Assembly: GCF_045037415.1 (NCBI RefSeq)
Contig: NZ_CP173438.1
Source: Escherichia coli
GTDB taxonomy: Bacteria > Pseudomonadota > Gammaproteobacteria > Enterobacterales > Enterobacteriaceae
Strand: one strand, 5' to 3'
Length of the DNA: 64,000 nucleotides
The notes beneath the pieces are model-generated. The model did no database searches and was not told where the DNA came from. It saw only the letters and a list, made by a program, of their open reading frames with translations. Positions within the stretch are counted from its first letter, which is position 1; each line of letters begins with the position of its first letter. Position numbers and translations under genes: made by a program. Positions 2,368 through 17,372 of this stretch are shown one piece after another.

Positions 2368-3588
2368 ATGACACCAGGCGGACAAGCTCAGATAGGTAAT
2401 GTTGATCTCGTAAAACAGCTTAACAGCGCGGCGGTTTATCGCCTGATTGACCAGTACGGGCCAATCTCGCGGATTCAGATTGCCGAGCAAAGTCAGCTTG
2501 CCCCCGCCAGCGTAACCAAAATTACGCGTCAGCTTATCGAACGCGGGCTGATCAAAGAAGTTGATCAGCAGGCCTCCACCGGGGGCCGCCGCGCTATCTC
2601 CATCGTCACCGAAACCCGCAATTTCCACGCAATCGGCGTACGGCTTGGTCGTCACGACGCCACCATCACCTTGTTTGATCTCAGCAGCAAAGTGCTGGCA
2701 GAAGAACATTACCCGCTGCCGGAACGTACCCAGCAGACGCTGGAACATGCCCTGCTGAATGCCATTGCTCAGTTTATTGATAGCTACCAGCGCAAGCTAC
2801 GCGAGCTGATCGCGATTTCGGTGATCCTGCCAGGGCTTGTAGACCCGGACAGCGGCAAAATTCATTACATGCCGCATATTCAGGTAGAAAACTGGGGGCT
2901 GGTTGAAGCACTGGAAGAGCGTTTTAAAGTGACCTGTTTTGTCGGCCACGATATCCGCAGTCTGGCGCTGGCAGAGCACTACTTCGGTGCAAGTCAGGAT
3001 TGCGAAGACTCCATTCTGGTGCGTGTCCATCGCGGAACCGGGGCCGGGATTATCTCTAACGGGCGAATTTTTATCGGGCGCAACGGCAACGTCGGTGAAA
3101 TTGGCCATATTCAGGTCGAACCGCTGGGTGAACGCTGCCACTGCGGCAACTTTGGCTGCCTGGAAACTATCGCCGCCAATGCTGCCATTGAACAACGGGT
3201 GTTGAATCTGTTAAAGCAGGGCTACCAGAGCCGTGTGCCACTGGACGACTGCACCATCAAAACTATCTGCAAAGCCGCGAACAAAGGCGATAGCCTGGCC
3301 TCGGAAGTGATTGAATATGTCGGTCGTCATCTGGGTAAAACCATCGCCATTGCTATCAACTTATTTAATCCGCAAAAAATTGTTATTGCTGGAGAAATCA
3401 CCGAAGCCGATAAAGTGCTGCTCCCTGCTATTGAAAGCTGCATTAATACCCAGGCGCTGAAGGCGTTTCGTACTAATCTACCGGTGGTACGTTCTGAGTT
3501 GGATCACCGCTCGGCAATCGGCGCTTTTGCGCTGGTAAAACGCGCCATGCTCAACGGTATTTTGCTCCAGCATTTGCTGGAAAATTAA
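2368..3588 (+). CDS. nagC: N-acetylglucosamine repressor (ROK family)
   Basis: 406-aa ORF with N-terminal HTH and ROK sugar-kinase-like domain incl. CHCGNFGCLE zinc motif. Confidence 0.97.
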   Translation: MTPGGQAQIGNVDLVKQLNSAAVYRLIDQYGPISRIQIAEQSQLAPASVTKITRQLIERGLIKEVDQQASTGGRRAISIVTETRNFHAIGVRLGRHDATITLFDLSSKVLAEEHYPLPERTQQTLEHALLNAIAQFIDSYQRKLRELIAISVILPGLVDPDSGKIHYMPHIQVENWGLVEALEERFKVTCFVGHDIRSLALAEHYFGASQDCEDSILVRVHRGTGAGIISNGRIFIGRNGNVGEIGHIQVEPLGERCHCGNFGCLETIAANAAIEQRVLNLLKQGYQSRVPLDDCTIKTICKAANKGDSLASEVIEYVGRHLGKTIAIAINLFNPQKIVIAGEITEADKVLLPAIESCINTQALKAFRTNLPVVRSELDHRSAIGAFALVKRAMLNGILLQHLLEN

Positions 3589-3635
3589 TGTGCTTTTATA
3601 GTGGCGCTTATTGTTGTCAATATTCTGGGTAGTCC

Positions 3636-4388
3636 ATGACCATTAAAAATGTAATTTGCGATATCGACGGCGTGCTGATGCACGATAACGTCGCCGTACC
3701 GGGTGCAGCGGAATTTTTGCACGGGATTATGGATAAAGGCCTGCCGCTGGTGTTGCTGACCAACTATCCTTCGCAGACCGGGCAAGATCTGGCGAATCGC
3801 TTTGCCACTGCCGGTGTCGATGTACCGGATAGCGTGTTTTATACCTCCGCAATGGCGACCGCCGATTTTCTGCGTCGCCAGGAAGGCAAGAAAGCGTATG
3901 TGGTGGGCGAAGGCGCACTGATTCATGAACTGTACAAAGCCGGTTTCACTATTACCGATGTGAACCCTGATTTTGTGATTGTTGGCGAAACGCGTTCCTA
4001 CAACTGGGACATGATGCATAAAGCAGCCTATTTCGTCGCTAACGGTGCACGCTTTATCGCCACCAACCCGGACACCCACGGGCGCGGTTTTTATCCCGCC
4101 TGTGGCGCGTTGTGTGCAGGGATCGAGAAAATCTCCGGGCGCAAACCGTTCTATGTTGGAAAGCCGAGTCCGTGGATCATCCGCGCGGCATTAAACAAAA
4201 TGCAGGCGCATTCGGAAGAAACGGTGATTGTCGGCGATAACTTGCGTACCGATATTCTGGCGGGCTTCCAGGCCGGTCTGGAGACGATTCTGGTGCTTTC
4301 TGGTGTTTCGTCGCTCGACGATATCGACAGTATGCCGTTCCGCCCAAGTTGGATTTACCCATCGGTCGCTGAAATCGACGTTATCTGA
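3636..4388 (+). CDS. nagD: HAD-family UMP/ribonucleotide phosphatase NagD/UmpH
   Basis: 250-aa ORF with HAD motif DIDGVL near N-terminus; synteny. Confidence 0.95.
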   Translation: MTIKNVICDIDGVLMHDNVAVPGAAEFLHGIMDKGLPLVLLTNYPSQTGQDLANRFATAGVDVPDSVFYTSAMATADFLRRQEGKKAYVVGEGALIHELYKAGFTITDVNPDFVIVGETRSYNWDMMHKAAYFVANGARFIATNPDTHGRGFYPACGALCAGIEKISGRKPFYVGKPSPWIIRAALNKMQAHSEETVIVGDNLRTDILAGFQAGLETILVLSGVSSLDDIDSMPFRPSWIYPSVAEIDVI

Positions 4389-12472: not shown

Positions 12473-13352
12473 ATGAGCGACGACAATTCACACAGTAGTG
12501 ACACGATAAGCAACAAGAAGGGATTTTTCTCCCTGTTACTCAGCCAACTTTTCCACGGTGAACCGAAAAACCGTGACGAACTGCTGGCGCTGATCCGTGA
12601 TTCCGGGCAGAACGACCTTATCGACGAAGATACGCGCGATATGCTCGAAGGGGTGATGGACATCGCAGACCAACGCGTTCGCGACATCATGATCCCCCGC
12701 TCCCAGATGATTACCCTGAAACGCAACCAGACGCTGGACGAATGCCTTGATGTCATCATCGAGTCCGCCCACTCACGTTTCCCGGTGATTAGCGAAGACA
12801 AAGATCACATTGAAGGGATTCTGATGGCGAAAGACTTGCTGCCGTTTATGCGCAGCGATGCTGAAGCCTTCAGCATGGACAAAGTGTTACGTCAGGCGGT
12901 TGTCGTTCCTGAAAGTAAGCGCGTAGACCGGATGCTGAAAGAGTTTCGCTCTCAGCGTTACCACATGGCGATCGTCATTGACGAATTCGGTGGGGTTTCC
13001 GGTTCTCGTGACCATTGAAGACATCCTGGAACTGATTGTTGGTGAGATTGAAGACGAGTATGACGAAGAAGATGATATCGACTTCCGTCAGCTGAGTCGT
13101 CATACCTGGACCGTGCGCGCACTGGCTTCTATTGAAGACTTCAACGAAGCGTTCGGCACCCACTTTAGCGATGAAGAGGTTGACACTATCGGTGGTCTGG
13201 TGATGCAGGCATTTGGGCATCTTCCGGCGCGTGGCGAAACCATCGACATCGACGGTTACCAGTTCAAAGTGGCGATGGCCGACAGTCGGCGTATTATTCA
13301 GGTTCATGTCAAAATCCCGGATGACTCACCCCAGCCGAAGCTGGATGAATAA
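12473..13352 (+). pseudogene. corC: corC/ybeX (CBS-domain Mg/Co efflux-associated protein) disrupted by a +1 frameshift near 13003
   Basis: Two ORFs (12473-13018, 181 aa; 12978-13352, 124 aa) together cover the 292-aa CorC sequence; the span is 880 nt (not a multiple of 3); frame changes after ...DEFGGVSG at ggTTctc. Confidence 0.75.
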
Positions 13353-13376: not shown

Positions 13377-14915
13377 ATGGCTTTTGCCTCATTAATTGAA
13401 CGCCAGCGCATTCGCCTGCTGCTGGCGTTATTATTCGGTGCCTGCGGAACGCTGGCCTTCTCTCCTTACGACGTCTGGCCTGCGGCGATTATTTCGCTGA
13501 TGGGACTTCAGGCGCTGACCTTTAACCGCCGTCCACTCCAGTCTACCGCTATTGGCTTTTGCTGGGGATTTGGCCTCTTTGGCAGCGGTATTAACTGGGT
13601 CTATGTCAGCATCGCGACCTTTGGCGGAATGCCTGGCCCGGTTAACATCTTCCTGGTGGTACTGCTGGCGGCGTATTTGTCGCTGTATACCGGACTGTTT
13701 GCTGGCGTGCTGTCGCGTCTGTGGCCGAAAACCACCTGGCTGCGCGTGGCGATTGCCGCCCCTGCTCTCTGGCAAGTGACCGAGTTTCTGCGCGGTTGGG
13801 TACTTACAGGCTTCCCGTGGTTACAGTTCGGCTATAGCCAGATTGATGGCCCGTTAAAAGGGCTGGCACCGATAATGGGCGTGGAAGCCATTAACTTCCT
13901 GCTGATGATGGTTAGTGGCCTGCTGGCACTGGCGTTGGTCAAACGCAACTGGCGTCCGCTGGTGGTGGCCGTCGTGCTGTTTGCCCTTCCCTTCCCGCTG
14001 CGTTACGTCCAGTGGTTTACCCCGCAACCGGAGAAAACCATTCAGGTTTCGATGGTTCAGGGCAATATTCCGCAATCGCTGAAATGGGACGAAGGCCAGC
14101 TTCTTAATACGCTGAAGATTTACTACAACGCAACGGCACCGCTGATGGGCAAATCATCGCTGATTATCTGGCCGGAGTCGGCGATAACCGATCTGGAAAT
14201 TAATCAGCAACCGTTCCTCAAAGCTCTGGACGGTGAGTTGCGCGATAAAGGTAGCTCGCTGATCACCGGGATTGTCGACGCGCGTCTCAATAAACAGAAC
14301 CGCTACGATACCTACAACACCATCATCACACTGGGTAAAGGCGCACCGTACAGCTATGAATCAGCCGATCGCTATAACAAAAACCATCTGGTGCCGTTTG
14401 GCGAGTTTGTCCCACTGGAGTCGATTCTGCGTCCATTAGCACCGTTCTTTGATTTGCCGATGTCGTCATTCAGCCGCGGACCATATATTCAGCCACCGCT
14501 GTCGTTGAATGGCATTCAACTTACTGCGGCCATTTGCTACGAAATCATTCTCGGCGAGCAAGTGCGCGATAACTTCCGCCCGGATACCGACTATCTGCTG
14601 ACTATCTCCAACGATGCGTGGTTTGGTAAGTCTATTGGTCCATGGCAGCACTTCCAGATGGCGCGAATGCGTGCGCTGGAGCTGGCGCGCCCACTGTTGC
14701 GCAGCACCAACAACGGCATTACGGCGGTGATTGGCCCGCAGGGTGAGATTCAGGCGATGATCCCGCAGTTCACCCGCGAGGTGTTAACCACTAACGTAAC
14801 GCCGACCACCGGACTCACCCCGTACTCACGTACCGGCAACTGGCCACTGTGGGTGCTGACGGCACTGTTTGGCTTTGCCGCTGTACTGATGAGTCTGCGT
14901 GCTCGCAAACGTTAA
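13377..14915 (+). CDS. lnt: apolipoprotein N-acyltransferase
   Basis: 512-aa ORF, N-terminal TM segments then C-N hydrolase domain. Confidence 0.96.
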
Positions 14916-14916
14916 T

Positions 14917-14950
14917 GTGCCTGATGCGCGACGCTTATCAGGCCTACGCG
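14917..14950. repeat. REP element
   Basis: tgcctgatgcgcgacgcttatcaggcctacg matches REP consensus palindrome. Confidence 0.6.
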
Positions 14951-15013
14951 ATTTTTGCAATATGTTGAATTTTCGCGATTTTGTAGGATAAAGCGTACTT
15001 TTTCAACACGCTC

Positions 15014-15039
15014 TGGGGCATGATTATCATGCCCTTTTT
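15014..15039 (+). terminator. rho-independent terminator after lnt
   Basis: ggggcatgattatcatgccc hairpin followed by TTTTTT; the stop codon of the convergent 625-aa gene abuts it. Confidence 0.7.
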
Positions 15040-15041
15040 TC

Positions 15042-16919
15042 TTACGGTTCAGGGATACAAGCCACATCGCCATATTGGGGATGCCGAATAATTGCCTGCG
15101 GATCAAGTGAACTTTCTCTGTCCAGTTGTATTAGCCCGTTCTTCGCCATAACAAATATCTTTCTACCATCCGCTGAAAAACGAAGATGATTCACGTAGCT
15201 GGCAGGATAAACGCCAATAATCTGCCCGGCATTAATATTGAGCAGGATGACATAACCTTGCAGGCCATATGACACCAACGCTAAATATTGACCGTCCGGG
15301 CTAATACCCTCAACGGAATAAACGCTCCTGCTACACCATTGCGTCATAATGCTGGCTTGTTGATCCTCAGCTCTTATACGTGAAATCCCCTGGCTATCGG
15401 CAAAAATAATCTCACCATTTTTTGGTCGGAATCCCATCGCAGAAACGACACCACGCGCATCACCTGCGGGAAAGTCTTCTTTCTGATGCGTGATGGTATT
15501 GATCCGCACGATGTTACCTCTGCCTGCTCCCGGAACCAGTAATGTTTTTTCATCCGGGGAAAGTGCCATAACCCAGGCGCCTGGTTTACCGCTCATCCCC
15601 GTCCCGTCGTATTTCTCCAGCGGGATATCCGCCACATGCTGATAAGCCACCAGATCAATCGCTGACACACTATTACTGGTGCGATTCATCACCCAGGCTT
15701 TTGTGCCATCACGCGAGAGGATAAGGCTGTCAGGATGTGCGCCGGTGGTAATCGACTGAATAATCTCCCCCGTTGCCACGTTAATGACCGATAATGCATT
15801 CGCTTCAAATGAAGTCGCATACAGCAACGTTTCATCCGGGCTTAGCGCCAGCGACCTGACGCCCTGATCTTTACAGCCACCACAATGTTTGACTGACTTT
15901 TCTTTCGCTATGGGGGCTGTAAAGGTATGCAGGATTTTCTTTTGTCCGAGGTCGAAAACAACAATGCTGTTCGTGTTTTCAATTGCGGCATACAACGTAT
16001 TAGCATCCCGACTGATCGCCATATCATGGATATCGGCAATCTCAGCGAGTAAATCACCACTGGCCTGCTCACGACTTACCGGAGCGGATAATGTTTCCCT
16101 GAGGGCGTTGCGCTCCTCCACTAACTGCTGCTTTTTTTGTCGTCGCTCTTGTTCAATCTCCTGCGGATAAAACGCTTCACGCAGGCTTTGCCTGACCTGT
16201 AAAACTGATTCATCAATCTGCTGCTGCACAAGCCAGATAGTCCCGGTCAGAAGAAGAGTGACCGCAACAATAATCCCGCCTTCCGTAACGAGCCGATTTT
16301 GCCCAACTAAACGCGCACTCAGCCAACCCAACGCGCCCCCCGCAATCAGGCCGCCAATGTGGCAAGCGTTATCTATTCCTGTTTGCCGGGTACCATACAA
16401 CAGTGTCAGCGCCACCATACCCAACAGAGGAAATACTCGCCGCTGGTTTTTATGGTGTGTGCCCGCACCTGAAGCAAGCTGTGTTGCTATCGCAGCGCCC
16501 GCTATTCCCATAATTGCCCCGGATGCCCCAACGCTGATGACTATCTGCTCACTTTCGCGTAACGCATAACAGGCGCTGATCAGCCCACCAAAGATGCCGG
16601 AGAATAACCAGATAATCAGGAGTCGCCATTTCCCCAGTATCCGTTCCGCCACTGTCCCCACCACCAGGAGTGCAAACATATTCATCAGCAAATGGGAAAA
16701 ACTACTGTGCAGAAAAACACTGCTCAATAAGCGCCAGGATTCATCCGACAACGTGAGAGAAGCAACGTTAGCGCCGAGATGGATGAGTGCGGATTGATCG
16801 ACTTCTTCGTAACTCATCCATTGTGCGAGGTAACAAAATATCCCAACACAGAGCGCAAAAAGGATCAGGGTTATTGCGGGTAATTGAACATTTAACGGCT
16901 TAACCGAAGATGCAGACAT
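15042..16919 (-). CDS. rhomboid-family intramembrane serine protease fused to a C-terminal seven-bladed beta-propeller (YVTN/YncE-like), 625 aa
   Basis: N-terminal ~230 aa: 7 predicted TM helices with rhomboid signatures (TM2 FLHSSFSHLLMNMF, catalytic GASGAIMG, catalytic His in ACHIGGLIAGG). Then a charged coiled-coil-like linker (QEIEQERRQKKQQLVEERNALRE) and ~350 aa of repeated beta-strand blades. Good RBS (AAGGAAG). Confidence 0.8.
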   Translation of the reverse strand: MSASSVKPLNVQLPAITLILFALCVGIFCYLAQWMSYEEVDQSALIHLGANVASLTLSDESWRLLSSVFLHSSFSHLLMNMFALLVVGTVAERILGKWRLLIIWLFSGIFGGLISACYALRESEQIVISVGASGAIMGIAGAAIATQLASGAGTHHKNQRRVFPLLGMVALTLLYGTRQTGIDNACHIGGLIAGGALGWLSARLVGQNRLVTEGGIIVAVTLLLTGTIWLVQQQIDESVLQVRQSLREAFYPQEIEQERRQKKQQLVEERNALRETLSAPVSREQASGDLLAEIADIHDMAISRDANTLYAAIENTNSIVVFDLGQKKILHTFTAPIAKEKSVKHCGGCKDQGVRSLALSPDETLLYATSFEANALSVINVATGEIIQSITTGAHPDSLILSRDGTKAWVMNRTSNSVSAIDLVAYQHVADIPLEKYDGTGMSGKPGAWVMALSPDEKTLLVPGAGRGNIVRINTITHQKEDFPAGDARGVVSAMGFRPKNGEIIFADSQGISRIRAEDQQASIMTQWCSRSVYSVEGISPDGQYLALVSYGLQGYVILLNINAGQIIGVYPASYVNHLRFSADGRKIFVMAKNGLIQLDRESSLDPQAIIRHPQYGDVACIPEP

Positions 16920-17372
16920 AAGGTGATTCTTCCTTGAAAAGACTAGTAAAAAGCATTTTCCCGTGTGTAGTTATCATCCCGGCAAACGTCCCACACCGAA
17001 AAGTTAACACTGTCCGAAATATGACTTTTTCAAACTGAAATTACAATCGTAATTAATTCACCCCTAAGTATTTTTTGGCATGTAAGTTGCTTTATTTACT
17101 GTGTAAGCAATGAAATCAGCCGCAACGCAACCGGGTTGCACCACCACAAATCAGCGGTAGCACCAAAAAGGTGCGGTTTAAGAATTTTGCTTCGGAATGG
17201 TGCGGCGCACCTCGCAAAAACAAACAATAAAACAGCAATATCTTTACATTTATCCAAACTAAATGTTACCTAACAAGCACAACACTGCACAATAAAGTCG
17301 CAGATGATAACAACACAAACACTCACAACGGGTATCCATGCGTTTTTAACGCAGAAGATAAAGGAGTTGGAT

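Follow-up and report, generated by a model that had tools for sequence, protein, structure and literature searches.

A predicted seven-bladed beta-propeller in the C-terminal domain of Rhom7, a rhomboid protease encoded between lnt and gltI in Escherichia coli

We report that a 625-residue open reading frame (ORF) between lnt and gltI in the window (the whole 64-kb stretch of E. coli DNA that was analysed) is, as judged by sequence and gene order, the E. coli orthologue of Shigella sonnei Rhom7 (SSON_0610, UniProt Q3Z4D6), and that its C-terminal approximately 340 residues, which follow a seventh transmembrane (TM) helix and a linker, are in the predicted structure a seven-bladed YVTN-type beta-propeller. 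The finding is largely known: a published protein has been correctly rediscovered and no new system is described. The propeller identity of the Rhom7 tail is the sole addition here to published knowledge. Taken together, our data make it very likely that Rhom7 is a second rhomboid, of the 6+1 TM type and distinct from GlpG, with a periplasmic propeller that would act as a binding platform, and that it is encoded by an old and often lost gene.

The rhom7 gene and its Shigella sonnei orthologue

The ORF starts with ATG and encodes 625 amino acids followed by a stop codon. The gene and the predicted signals next to it are:

15042..16919, minus strand: rhom7 ORF (ORF list; 93% identity to the S. 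sonnei protein; agreement with the sequence in Fig EV1 of PMC7232013)
16929..16935, minus strand: Shine-Dalgarno-like AAGGAAG, 9 nt 5' of the rhom7 ATG (read from the sequence)
15015..15035, plus strand: hairpin rich in G+C with a T-run behind it, located where lnt and rhom7 converge (terminator-like scan, a consensus match only)

This hairpin is the probable terminator of lnt and could also serve rhom7 as a hairpin. The gene is monocistronic, flanked by convergent lnt and divergent gltI, and the ORF list gave no operon partner within the 64-kb window; a simple promoter scan, the result of which is uninformative, returned no sigma-70-like promoter 5' of rhom7. The gene order in the window, gltLKJI, rhom7 and lnt-corC-ybeY-phoH, matches that of the S. 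sonnei contig.

The window protein and the S. sonnei protein (P0020) are 93% identical with 100% coverage, and the Rhom7 sequence presented in Fig EV1 of PMC7232013 agrees with the S. sonnei protein and has the same 625-residue numbering, including Ser133 and His187. Because of this full-length identity, the shared numbering and the shared position of rhom7 between lnt and gltI on the S. sonnei contig and in the window, we regard the E. coli ORF as the Rhom7 orthologue. The two proteins have the same seven-TM prediction and C-terminal domain, and the window protein represents an allelic variant (approximately 7% protein difference) in a class of alleles at 96-100% DNA identity that includes those of SK1144 and E2348/69. 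The initial annotation did not recognise a characterised protein in this ORF; its orthologue had, however, already been characterised by Liu et al. 2020 (EMBO J 39:e102922; PMC7232013), and the suggested novelty is withdrawn since the protein belongs to an annotated and characterised family (the RefSeq product name is 'rhomboid family intramembrane serine protease'). No study of E. coli rhom7 was found in the literature searched by this product name.

According to Liu et al., S. sonnei Rhom7 is an active rhomboid that is inactivated by either S133A or H187A, and when overexpressed it cleaves the TM segments of HybA, HybO and FdnH, while cleavage of HybA and FdnH was undetectable at native Rhom7 levels in S. 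sonnei. Removal of the C-terminal domain, with or without TM7, left cleavage of an artificial model substrate unaffected, a test that says nothing on the choice of natural substrates. A double rhomboid mutant was without growth, stress or secretion phenotype (PMC7232013). In the same paper the Rhom7 tail is named just 'C-terminal domain' and the word 'propeller' is absent, as it is from a 2025 rhomboid review in JBC; the literature searched, including for rhomboids with a beta-propeller or YVTN, held no report of the propeller identity of this tail.

Domain organisation of Rhom7

The domains and catalytic codons, all within the ORF, are positioned as follows:

16305..16919, minus strand: rhomboid core TM1-TM6, residues 1-205 (PF01694; invariant motifs; 2nr9 match; helices of the AlphaFold model)
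16521..16523, minus strand: codon of the catalytic Ser133 (computed position; S133A is inactive in S. sonnei Rhom7, PMC7232013)
16359..16361, minus strand: codon of the catalytic His187 (computed position; H187A is inactive in S. sonnei Rhom7, PMC7232013)
16221..16295, minus strand: TM7, residues ~209-233 (hydropathy peak 210-235; helix 209-233 of the AlphaFold model)
16056..16220, minus strand: charged helical linker, residues ~234-288 (helices 237-250 and 253-272 of the AlphaFold model; invariant alignment columns)
15045..16055, minus strand: predicted seven-bladed YVTN-type beta-propeller, residues ~289-625 (TIGR02276; 1l0q; Foldseek; strands of the AlphaFold model)

The two modules originally proposed for the ORF, a rhomboid and a propeller, were borne out by the PF01694 and TIGR02276 profiles and by the AlphaFold model. 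In the Pfam search PF01694 matched residues 60-201 (E = 7.8e-29) over model positions 3-140 of 143, and a phmmer search against the PDB aligned the GlpG homologue 2nr9 with residues 13-204 (E = 8e-10). Four motifs are invariant across 17 homologues with identities down to 25%, namely W62 R63 (the WR motif of the L1 loop), H71-x4-H76-x3-N80 (TM2; H76-x3-N80 is the HxxxN oxyanion part), G131-A-S133-G134 (GxSG, TM4) and H187-x-G189-G190...G194 (TM6; H187-I-G189-G190). The catalytic Ser in TM4 and His in TM6 are thus where the initial annotation had put them, but its oxyanion motif has to be corrected from H-x4-N to H-x3-N. By homology to the GlpG structures, the Ser133 and His187 side chains would lie within hydrogen-bonding distance of each other. 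Hence the profile match, GxSG Ser, His-GG, HxxxN and WR motifs and at least six TM helices that define rhomboids (PF01694 / MEROPS S54) are all present in Rhom7. As foreseen, the AlphaFold model (mean pLDDT 80) places seven long helices in residues 15-233 (~15-34, 62-95, 97-121, 131-149, 152-178, 182-203 and 209-233); hydropathy peaks agree with five of the seven, with TM5 (152-178) and TM6 (182-203) below the threshold.

With E. coli GlpG, the structures of which match residues ~13-204, Rhom7 shares the fold and catalytic motifs, but GlpG consists of an N-terminal cytoplasmic domain and six TM helices, with no domain in the periplasm. GlpG orthology was rejected (TIGR04239, 42.4 bits vs a cutoff of 250; NF008155, 36.9 vs 335 bits), as was orthology with rhombosortase (TIGR03902, 44.1 bits vs a cutoff of 84), which processes GlyGly-CTERM proteins. 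AarA of Providencia stuartii is a seven-TM bacterial rhomboid with a reported 30% identity to Rhom7, and the TM segment of its substrate TatA is also cleaved by Rhom7 (PMC7232013); AarA (281 aa), however, stops soon after TM7 and lacks a propeller, and while TatA is a defined maturation substrate of AarA none is established for Rhom7 at native expression.

A similar organisation is found in Bacillus subtilis YqgP/GluP (Began et al. 2020, PMC7231995), a 6+1 TM rhomboid in which TM7 exposes an extracytoplasmic repeat-type protein-binding domain and for which, as for Rhom7, a role in membrane-protein quality control has been proposed. Outside the Rhom7 family, the rhomboid cores closest to it are those of GluP-like proteins with TPR tails (35-43% core identity), which match the core only, with 23-47% of the query covered. 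The YqgP/GluP tail consists of three TPR motifs and the protein has an N-terminal cytosolic sensor domain, whereas Rhom7 has a YVTN beta-propeller as its tail, no TPR Pfam match and only ~14 residues before TM1; although the 6+1 core is present, assignment of Rhom7 to the GluP/YqgP type was consequently rejected. Unlike for YqgP/GluP, we know of no link between Rhom7 and FtsH or metal sensing.

Given the N-in/C-in topology of the six-TM rhomboid core, TM7 should put the C-terminal domain in the periplasm, and this location is supported by the hydrophobic TM7 following an R-rich TM6-TM7 loop and by the conservation of Cys529 and Cys621. Behind TM7 the model has a charged helical linker at residues 237-272 (~40 residues), in keeping with the charged coiled-coil-like linker expected there, and the homologue alignment places a conserved PVS-x-E-x-A-x-G motif at the linker end in which V281, A286 and G288 are invariant.

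The remainder of the model comprises 28 strands, i.e. seven blades of four strands each, across residues 289-600, with pLDDT values of ~85-95 in most 10-residue blocks. The TIGR02276 YVTN repeat matched two stretches of the protein with 53.3 bits, above its cutoff of 27.85, and an archaeal YVTN propeller from an S-layer protein (1l0q) was both the best PDB sequence match (phmmer, E = 3e-23) and the top Foldseek PDB match to the model (E = 1.4e-17); YncE- and lactonase-type propellers were among the AFDB50 structural matches. These data agree with the seven YVTN-type blades that had been suggested from the sequence. A strong YVTN sequence signature is kept only in blades 2-3 (residues ~352-436). 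Cys346 and Cys349 are conserved, and in the homologue alignment Cys529 is nearly invariant and Cys621 is invariant.

The YVTN/YncE-type propellers (1l0q; E. coli YncE, 3vgz) belong to the same repeat family and have the same seven-bladed fold as the Rhom7 tail, but they are free or part of an S-layer whereas the Rhom7 propeller is membrane-tethered via the rhomboid. YncE orthology was rejected (NF052280, 31.1 bits vs a cutoff of 400, with one blade matched). A search with the C-terminal domain alone against 1.84 billion protein representatives revealed no free-standing ancestor of the propeller; the matches were mostly giant multi-repeat YVTN proteins and covered only blades 2-3.

Distribution and evolution of rhom7

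The rhom7 gene is present in approximately 60% of complete E. coli genomes, which number 5,426, and absent from approximately 40%. It is carried by E. coli B and EPEC E2348/69 and is missing from K-12 and O157:H7, which matters when results on K-12 rhomboids are extrapolated to E. coli. Its absence from K-12, as stated in the initial annotation, is reflected in the length of the lnt-gltI spacer: 2457 bp in the window, 396 bp in O157:H7 and, without IS5, ~400 bp in K-12. The variable segment is:

14901..17127, no strand assigned: presence/absence segment of ~2.2 kb (blastn of the window vs the K-12 W3110 and O157:H7 loci)

In K-12 and O157:H7 this segment is replaced by an unrelated spacer of ~110-165 bp (blastn), with the left breakpoint within the last five codons of lnt and the right one between 17074 and 17128. 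The IS5 element of K-12 sits at a CTAA that lies ~100 bp upstream of gltI, equivalent to 17270-17273 in the window. Hence, the earlier placing of the gene where K-12 carries IS5 is right as to the intergenic region, but since the IS5 site falls outside the presence/absence segment IS5 did not replace rhom7.

The proposed check of the distribution across Enterobacteriaceae showed that the same lnt-gltI junction is occupied by homologues at 50-54% identity in Klebsiella aerogenes and Klebsiella sp., and it is also occupied in Shigella, E. whittamii, cryptic Escherichia and several Klebsiella species. The whole rhomboid-propeller architecture is kept at 22-32% identity in Chromobacterium, Cedecea, Paraburkholderia and Phytopseudomonas, i.e. 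the fusion spans Gamma- and Betaproteobacteria. A profile scan of contigs with a narrow alignment of the C-terminal domain understates this distribution, for it missed Klebsiella and gave four loci, all of Escherichia type (E. whittamii, Escherichia sp. MOD1 and two probably contaminated MAG contigs).

The presence/absence polymorphism with its sharp breakpoints, together with a GC content below that of lnt (0.498 vs 0.553), might indicate that rhom7 is a genomic islet that some E. coli lineages recently acquired at the lnt-gltI junction. We consider such an origin highly improbable: the GC content is that of the window mean (0.503) and above that of gltI (0.487), so that the impression of a GC slightly below both flanking core genes was incorrect; the alleles have diverged at synonymous sites about as far as the flanks (dS 0.14-0.19 vs 0.12-0.13 for lnt and gltI); there is no integrase, tRNA or direct repeat at the borders; the junction is occupied by the gene in the other Escherichia, Shigella and Klebsiella listed above; and the 'empty' alleles hold their own unrelated spacer rather than a clean attachment site. 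Recent horizontal acquisition was thus rejected on GC, dS and synteny. The matching dS and average GC, combined with a dN/dS of 0.2-0.3, instead point to an old, weakly constrained gene that has often been lost or frameshifted and is not a new island.

The dN/dS of rhom7 is approximately five times that of the flanking genes (0.02-0.06) but below 1 in every domain. For the rhomboid core the values are 0.32-0.36, and the propeller is at or below these with 0.17-0.19 in comparisons with strains B and IBS28 and 0.31 with the closer E2348/69. Since the architecture is also retained down to 22-32% identity, we take the propeller to be functional and not junk. One allele is split by a frameshift into 199 aa + 440 aa and forms a cluster of 640 member sequences, and E. 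coli fragments of it are present in AFDB, while an intact gene of 625 codons is found in four divergent E. coli alleles with dS up to 0.19.

The absence from ~40% of the genomes, the frameshifted lineages and the raised dN/dS fit a marginal function. They could even be read as signs of a decaying gene, intact here but poorly expressed, contributing little and heading for loss, with a propeller that has no current role, and the endogenous S. sonnei Rhom7 level, too low for detectable cleavage (PMC7232013), and the lack of a promoter-like site in the simple scan would go along with this. Yet decay to this point appears unlikely to us, considering that dN/dS is well below 1 throughout, that the four divergent alleles are all intact, that every catalytic residue is invariant and that Klebsiella, at ~50% divergence, has kept the gene in this position. 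We therefore favour an old, vertically inherited gene under weak constraint.

A possible role of the propeller

Few physiological roles are known for bacterial rhomboids, and Rhom7 is among the few with candidate substrates, which are subunits orphaned from hydrogenase-2 and formate dehydrogenase-N. The sequence and the published work on the 93%-identical S. sonnei protein show that the six-helix core with its Ser133-His187 dyad cleaves TM segments of single-pass proteins that have a helix-destabilising proline, among them, under Rhom7 overexpression, the HybA and FdnH anchors orphaned from their respiratory complexes. TM7 would place the propeller in the periplasm. The rhomboid active site opens towards this side, which also holds the ectodomains of the type I/III substrates of Rhom7. 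Recognition of the propeller thereby provides a concrete hypothesis, i.e. that it is a receptor for substrates or partners: a protein-binding platform that would select or recruit the natural ones while being dispensable for catalysis itself.

A more specific version, which we put forward tentatively, is that the propeller is a substrate-selection module that senses either a ligand or surfaces of periplasmic domains exposed only on orphan subunits (for instance the Tat-exported FeS subunits HybA and FdnH), and delivers the TM anchors to the active site; swappable tails, a propeller here and TPR in the GluP-like proteins, might then set the client range of 6+1 rhomboids. If true, selection by the propeller would explain in structural terms how a rhomboid discriminates between orphan and assembled proteins.

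The propeller could also bind a single cognate substrate or a particular ligand in the periplasm, with cleavage as a maturation or signalling step rather than as general quality control, comparable to AarA-TatA or rhombosortase; this includes the 'propeller-gated' protease of the initial annotation. Conservation of the fusion across Gamma- and Betaproteobacteria and purifying selection on the propeller are both compatible with such a dedicated protease, the TPR tail on the nearest outside cores suggests an exchangeable specificity module, and as HybA and FdnH are cleaved only on overexpression the true substrate may be something else. We nevertheless consider a dedicated protease rather unlikely. 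The gene has been lost from ~40% of E. coli, and nothing at the locus obviously compensates for this; no phenotype is known for Rhom7 loss and the model substrate is cleaved without the C-terminal domain (PMC7232013), which argues against obligatory gating of catalysis; and no conserved neighbour gene for a cognate substrate is apparent, the Chromobacterium-type and L010 contexts sharing nothing with the Escherichia/Klebsiella locus and giving no neighbourhood clue to the substrate.

Rhom7 and its C-terminal propeller

We report that the protein encoded between lnt and gltI is already known and has been experimentally characterised as Rhom7; the initial annotation, which did not recognise it as a characterised protein, observed the gene correctly and read its anatomy accurately. 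The ORF was found exactly as annotated and is the sole ORF between the two genes, arranged in the window as follows:

15042..16919, minus strand: rhom7 ORF, ATG start, 625 aa
9 nt upstream of the rhom7 start, minus strand: Shine-Dalgarno-like AAGGAAG, read from the sequence
13377..14915, plus strand: lnt, convergent with rhom7
Annotated start 17373, plus strand: gltI, divergent from rhom7

Profile searches recovered both predicted domains. Pfam gave a strong match to Rhomboid (PF01694, E=7.8e-29, residues 60-201) and weak matches to YncE and lactonase-type propellers, and in NCBIfam the YVTN repeat TIGR02276 scored 53.3 bits, above its curated cutoff of 27.85. The NCBIfam equivalogs for GlpG, rhombosortase and YncE scored far under their curated cutoffs. 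The motifs W62-R63, H71-x4-H76-x3-N80, G-A-S133-G and H187-x-G-G are conserved without exception in 17 aligned homologues, down to 25% identity, and stand where the initial annotation had placed them, except that its "H-x4-N" should read H-x3-N. With every catalytic determinant in place, the protein is a bona fide rhomboid.

The AlphaFold2 model made from the 17-homologue alignment (mean pLDDT 80; ~85-95 for most of the C-terminal domain's 10-residue blocks) has seven long helices within residues 15-233, a charged helical linker at 237-272 and 28 strands forming seven four-stranded blades from 289 to 600. In sequence searches of the PDB, GlpG structures match residues 13-204, and the tail finds its best match in 1l0q, the YVTN propeller of an archaeal S-layer protein (E=3e-23), which also ranks first among PDB matches in the fold search; AFDB50 gives YncE and lactonase-type propellers. 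The model together with the sequence and fold matches confirms the proposed two-module architecture with seven TM helices and seven blades, in which the seventh TM helix and a helical linker of ~40 residues precede a seven-bladed YVTN propeller.

The second rhomboid of Shigella sonnei, SSON_0610, was described by Liu et al. 2020 (EMBO J 39:e102922, PMC7232013) and named Rhom7 for its seven predicted TM domains, with Ser133 and His187 as catalytic residues. In the window protein exactly these positions are Ser and His; the protein is 93% identical to the S. sonnei database proteins (P0020) along its entire length and agrees with the sequence printed in Fig EV1 of that paper; the gene order gltLKJI, rhom7, lnt-corC-ybeY-phoH is also found on an S. 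sonnei contig. Rhom7 (Q3Z4D6) is counted among the characterised bacterial rhomboids in a 2025 JBC review. The tail is named only "C-terminal domain" in PMC7232013, the word "propeller" is absent from both texts, and no paper connecting rhomboids to YVTN or periplasmic propellers turned up in our literature searches. The domain is already recognised by databases, since at least one NCBI record, for a homologue from Klebsiella oxytoca, bears the title "YVTN family beta-propeller protein". What we add is the propeller identity of the C-terminal domain, the synteny conserved with Klebsiella, the relaxed constraint and frequent loss of rhom7, and the clarification that the K-12 IS5 is unrelated to its absence.

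Presence, absence and rate of evolution of rhom7

At least 80% of a 2.6-kb query is held by 3,231 of the 5,426 complete E. coli genomes, among them E. coli B, EPEC E2348/69 and ABU 83972; for K-12 and O157:H7 the match is limited to its gltI-proximal end. Homology with the latter two ends at window position 14900, five codons ahead of the lnt stop, and starts again between 17074 and 17128. Since this left breakpoint falls inside lnt, the Lnt C-termini differ (window 14901..14915: ...LRARKR vs ...LRQRRK in K-12 and O157:H7). Empty alleles carry ~110-165 bp of unrelated spacer with its own REP-like palindrome. The lnt-gltI spacer measures 2457 bp in the window, 396 bp in O157:H7 and 1595 bp in K-12 including IS5, and the estimate that the K-12 junction, once IS5 is removed, is about 2.0 kb shorter was therefore correct. 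The K-12 IS5 (locus L001, about 3147..4337) has a CTAA target equivalent to window 17270-17273, ~100 bp upstream of gltI in sequence common to all alleles, and its insertion is an event separate from the absence of rhom7.

In Klebsiella aerogenes and Klebsiella sp. RHBSTW-00484 the lnt-gltI junction also contains a homologue, with 50-54% identity as compared with 82-88% for Lnt and GltI; K. huaxiensis, K. oxytoca and K. michiganensis encode related proteins. More distant proteins (22-32% identity) from Chromobacterium, Cedecea neteri, Paraburkholderia and Phytopseudomonas share the complete architecture. A scan of species-representative genomes, which did not pick up the Klebsiella loci and so underestimates the distribution, returned only E. 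whittamii, a cryptic Escherichia and two MAG contigs; rhom7 is therefore accessory almost everywhere. These MAG contigs (L004 and L005, "Proteobacteria bacterium" and "Collinsella sp.", 2.4-2.7 kb) carry 94%-identical rhom7 fragments and most likely reflect mis-binning or contamination from Escherichia.

The E. coli alleles are 92-97% identical in Rhom7 protein sequence and 98-99% in Lnt and GltI. At synonymous sites rhom7 diverges much as its flanks do (0.14-0.19 vs 0.12-0.13). Its dN/dS is 0.2-0.3 vs 0.02-0.06 for the flanks, and its non-synonymous evolution is about five times faster than in the adjacent genes. Against strains B and IBS28, dN/dS is 0.17-0.19 for the propeller and 0.32-0.36 for the protease core; the propeller is no less constrained than the core. 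In a widespread E. coli allele (locus L017, 1947..3823) a frameshift leaves a 199-aa rhomboid ORF and a 440-aa propeller ORF; the latter represents a cluster with 640 member sequences, and similar E. coli fragments are annotated "Outer membrane protein" in AFDB. The patchy occurrence could be read as recent horizontal acquisition, which we disfavour: the identities, synonymous divergence and dN/dS, the GC content (0.498 vs 0.503 for the window), the Klebsiella junction and the frameshifted allele together point to an old gene that is inherited vertically, is subject to purifying selection, relaxed but real, and has been lost or inactivated repeatedly, rather than to an islet acquired recently.

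Two further features of the region were noted. A REP-like palindrome, GCCTGATGCGCGACGCTTATCAGGCCTAC, follows the lnt stop (14918..14950); rhom7-positive strains differ in whether they have it, and lnt and rhom7 are 126 bp apart in the window vs 77 bp in IBS28. Moreover, corC (ybeX; 12473..13352, plus strand) reads as two overlapping ORFs of 181 and 124 aa because of one extra nucleotide, a T at 13003, compared with corC of K-12 W3110. Either this strain carries a true frameshift pseudogene of CorC, which is associated with Mg/Co efflux, or the extra base is a sequencing error.

Possible role of the tail

Rhomboid active sites open on the periplasmic side, as established from GlpG structures, and TM7 would place the propeller on that side, where HybA and FdnH also have their large N-terminal domains. 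Cys621, near the C-terminus in the propeller (window 15045..16055, minus strand), is invariant and Cys529 nearly invariant among the 17 homologues; their conservation and the R-rich TM6-TM7 loop fit a periplasmic, disulfide-bonded domain, and we infer both location and disulfide.

The near-identical S. sonnei orthologue is an active protease that prefers proline-containing TM anchors of orphan Tat-exported FeS subunits. It cuts a TatA-based model substrate, S133A and H187A mutants are inactive, and cleavage is unimpaired without the C-terminal domain or without TM7 and the C-terminal domain (PMC7232013). When 44 candidate TM segments were screened with Rhom7 overexpressed, those of HybA, HybO and FdnH were cleaved; full-length FdnH was cleaved only as an orphan, without FdnI, and its TM proline was needed (PMC7232013). 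At native expression Rhom7 was too low for detectable cleavage, and a double mutant in glpG and rhom7 showed no phenotype in growth, respiration, oxidative stress or T3SS secretion (PMC7232013). A marginal or decaying function is a rival reading here, to be set beside the purifying selection; another is a dedicated processing or signalling role for some ligand or substrate.

Propellers and the TPR arrays of GluP-like proteins, the closest rhomboid cores outside the family, are both generic protein-binding scaffolds, as is the C-terminal (TPR) domain of YqgP. [quoted passage not shown]

A second conserved cysteine pair of the propeller, Cys346/Cys349 (C-x2-C), lies in a low-confidence loop between blades 1 and 2; its equivalent is C-x4-C in most of the distant homologues and is absent in K. 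aerogenes. The 346/349 and 529/621 pairs could be disulfides or a metal site.
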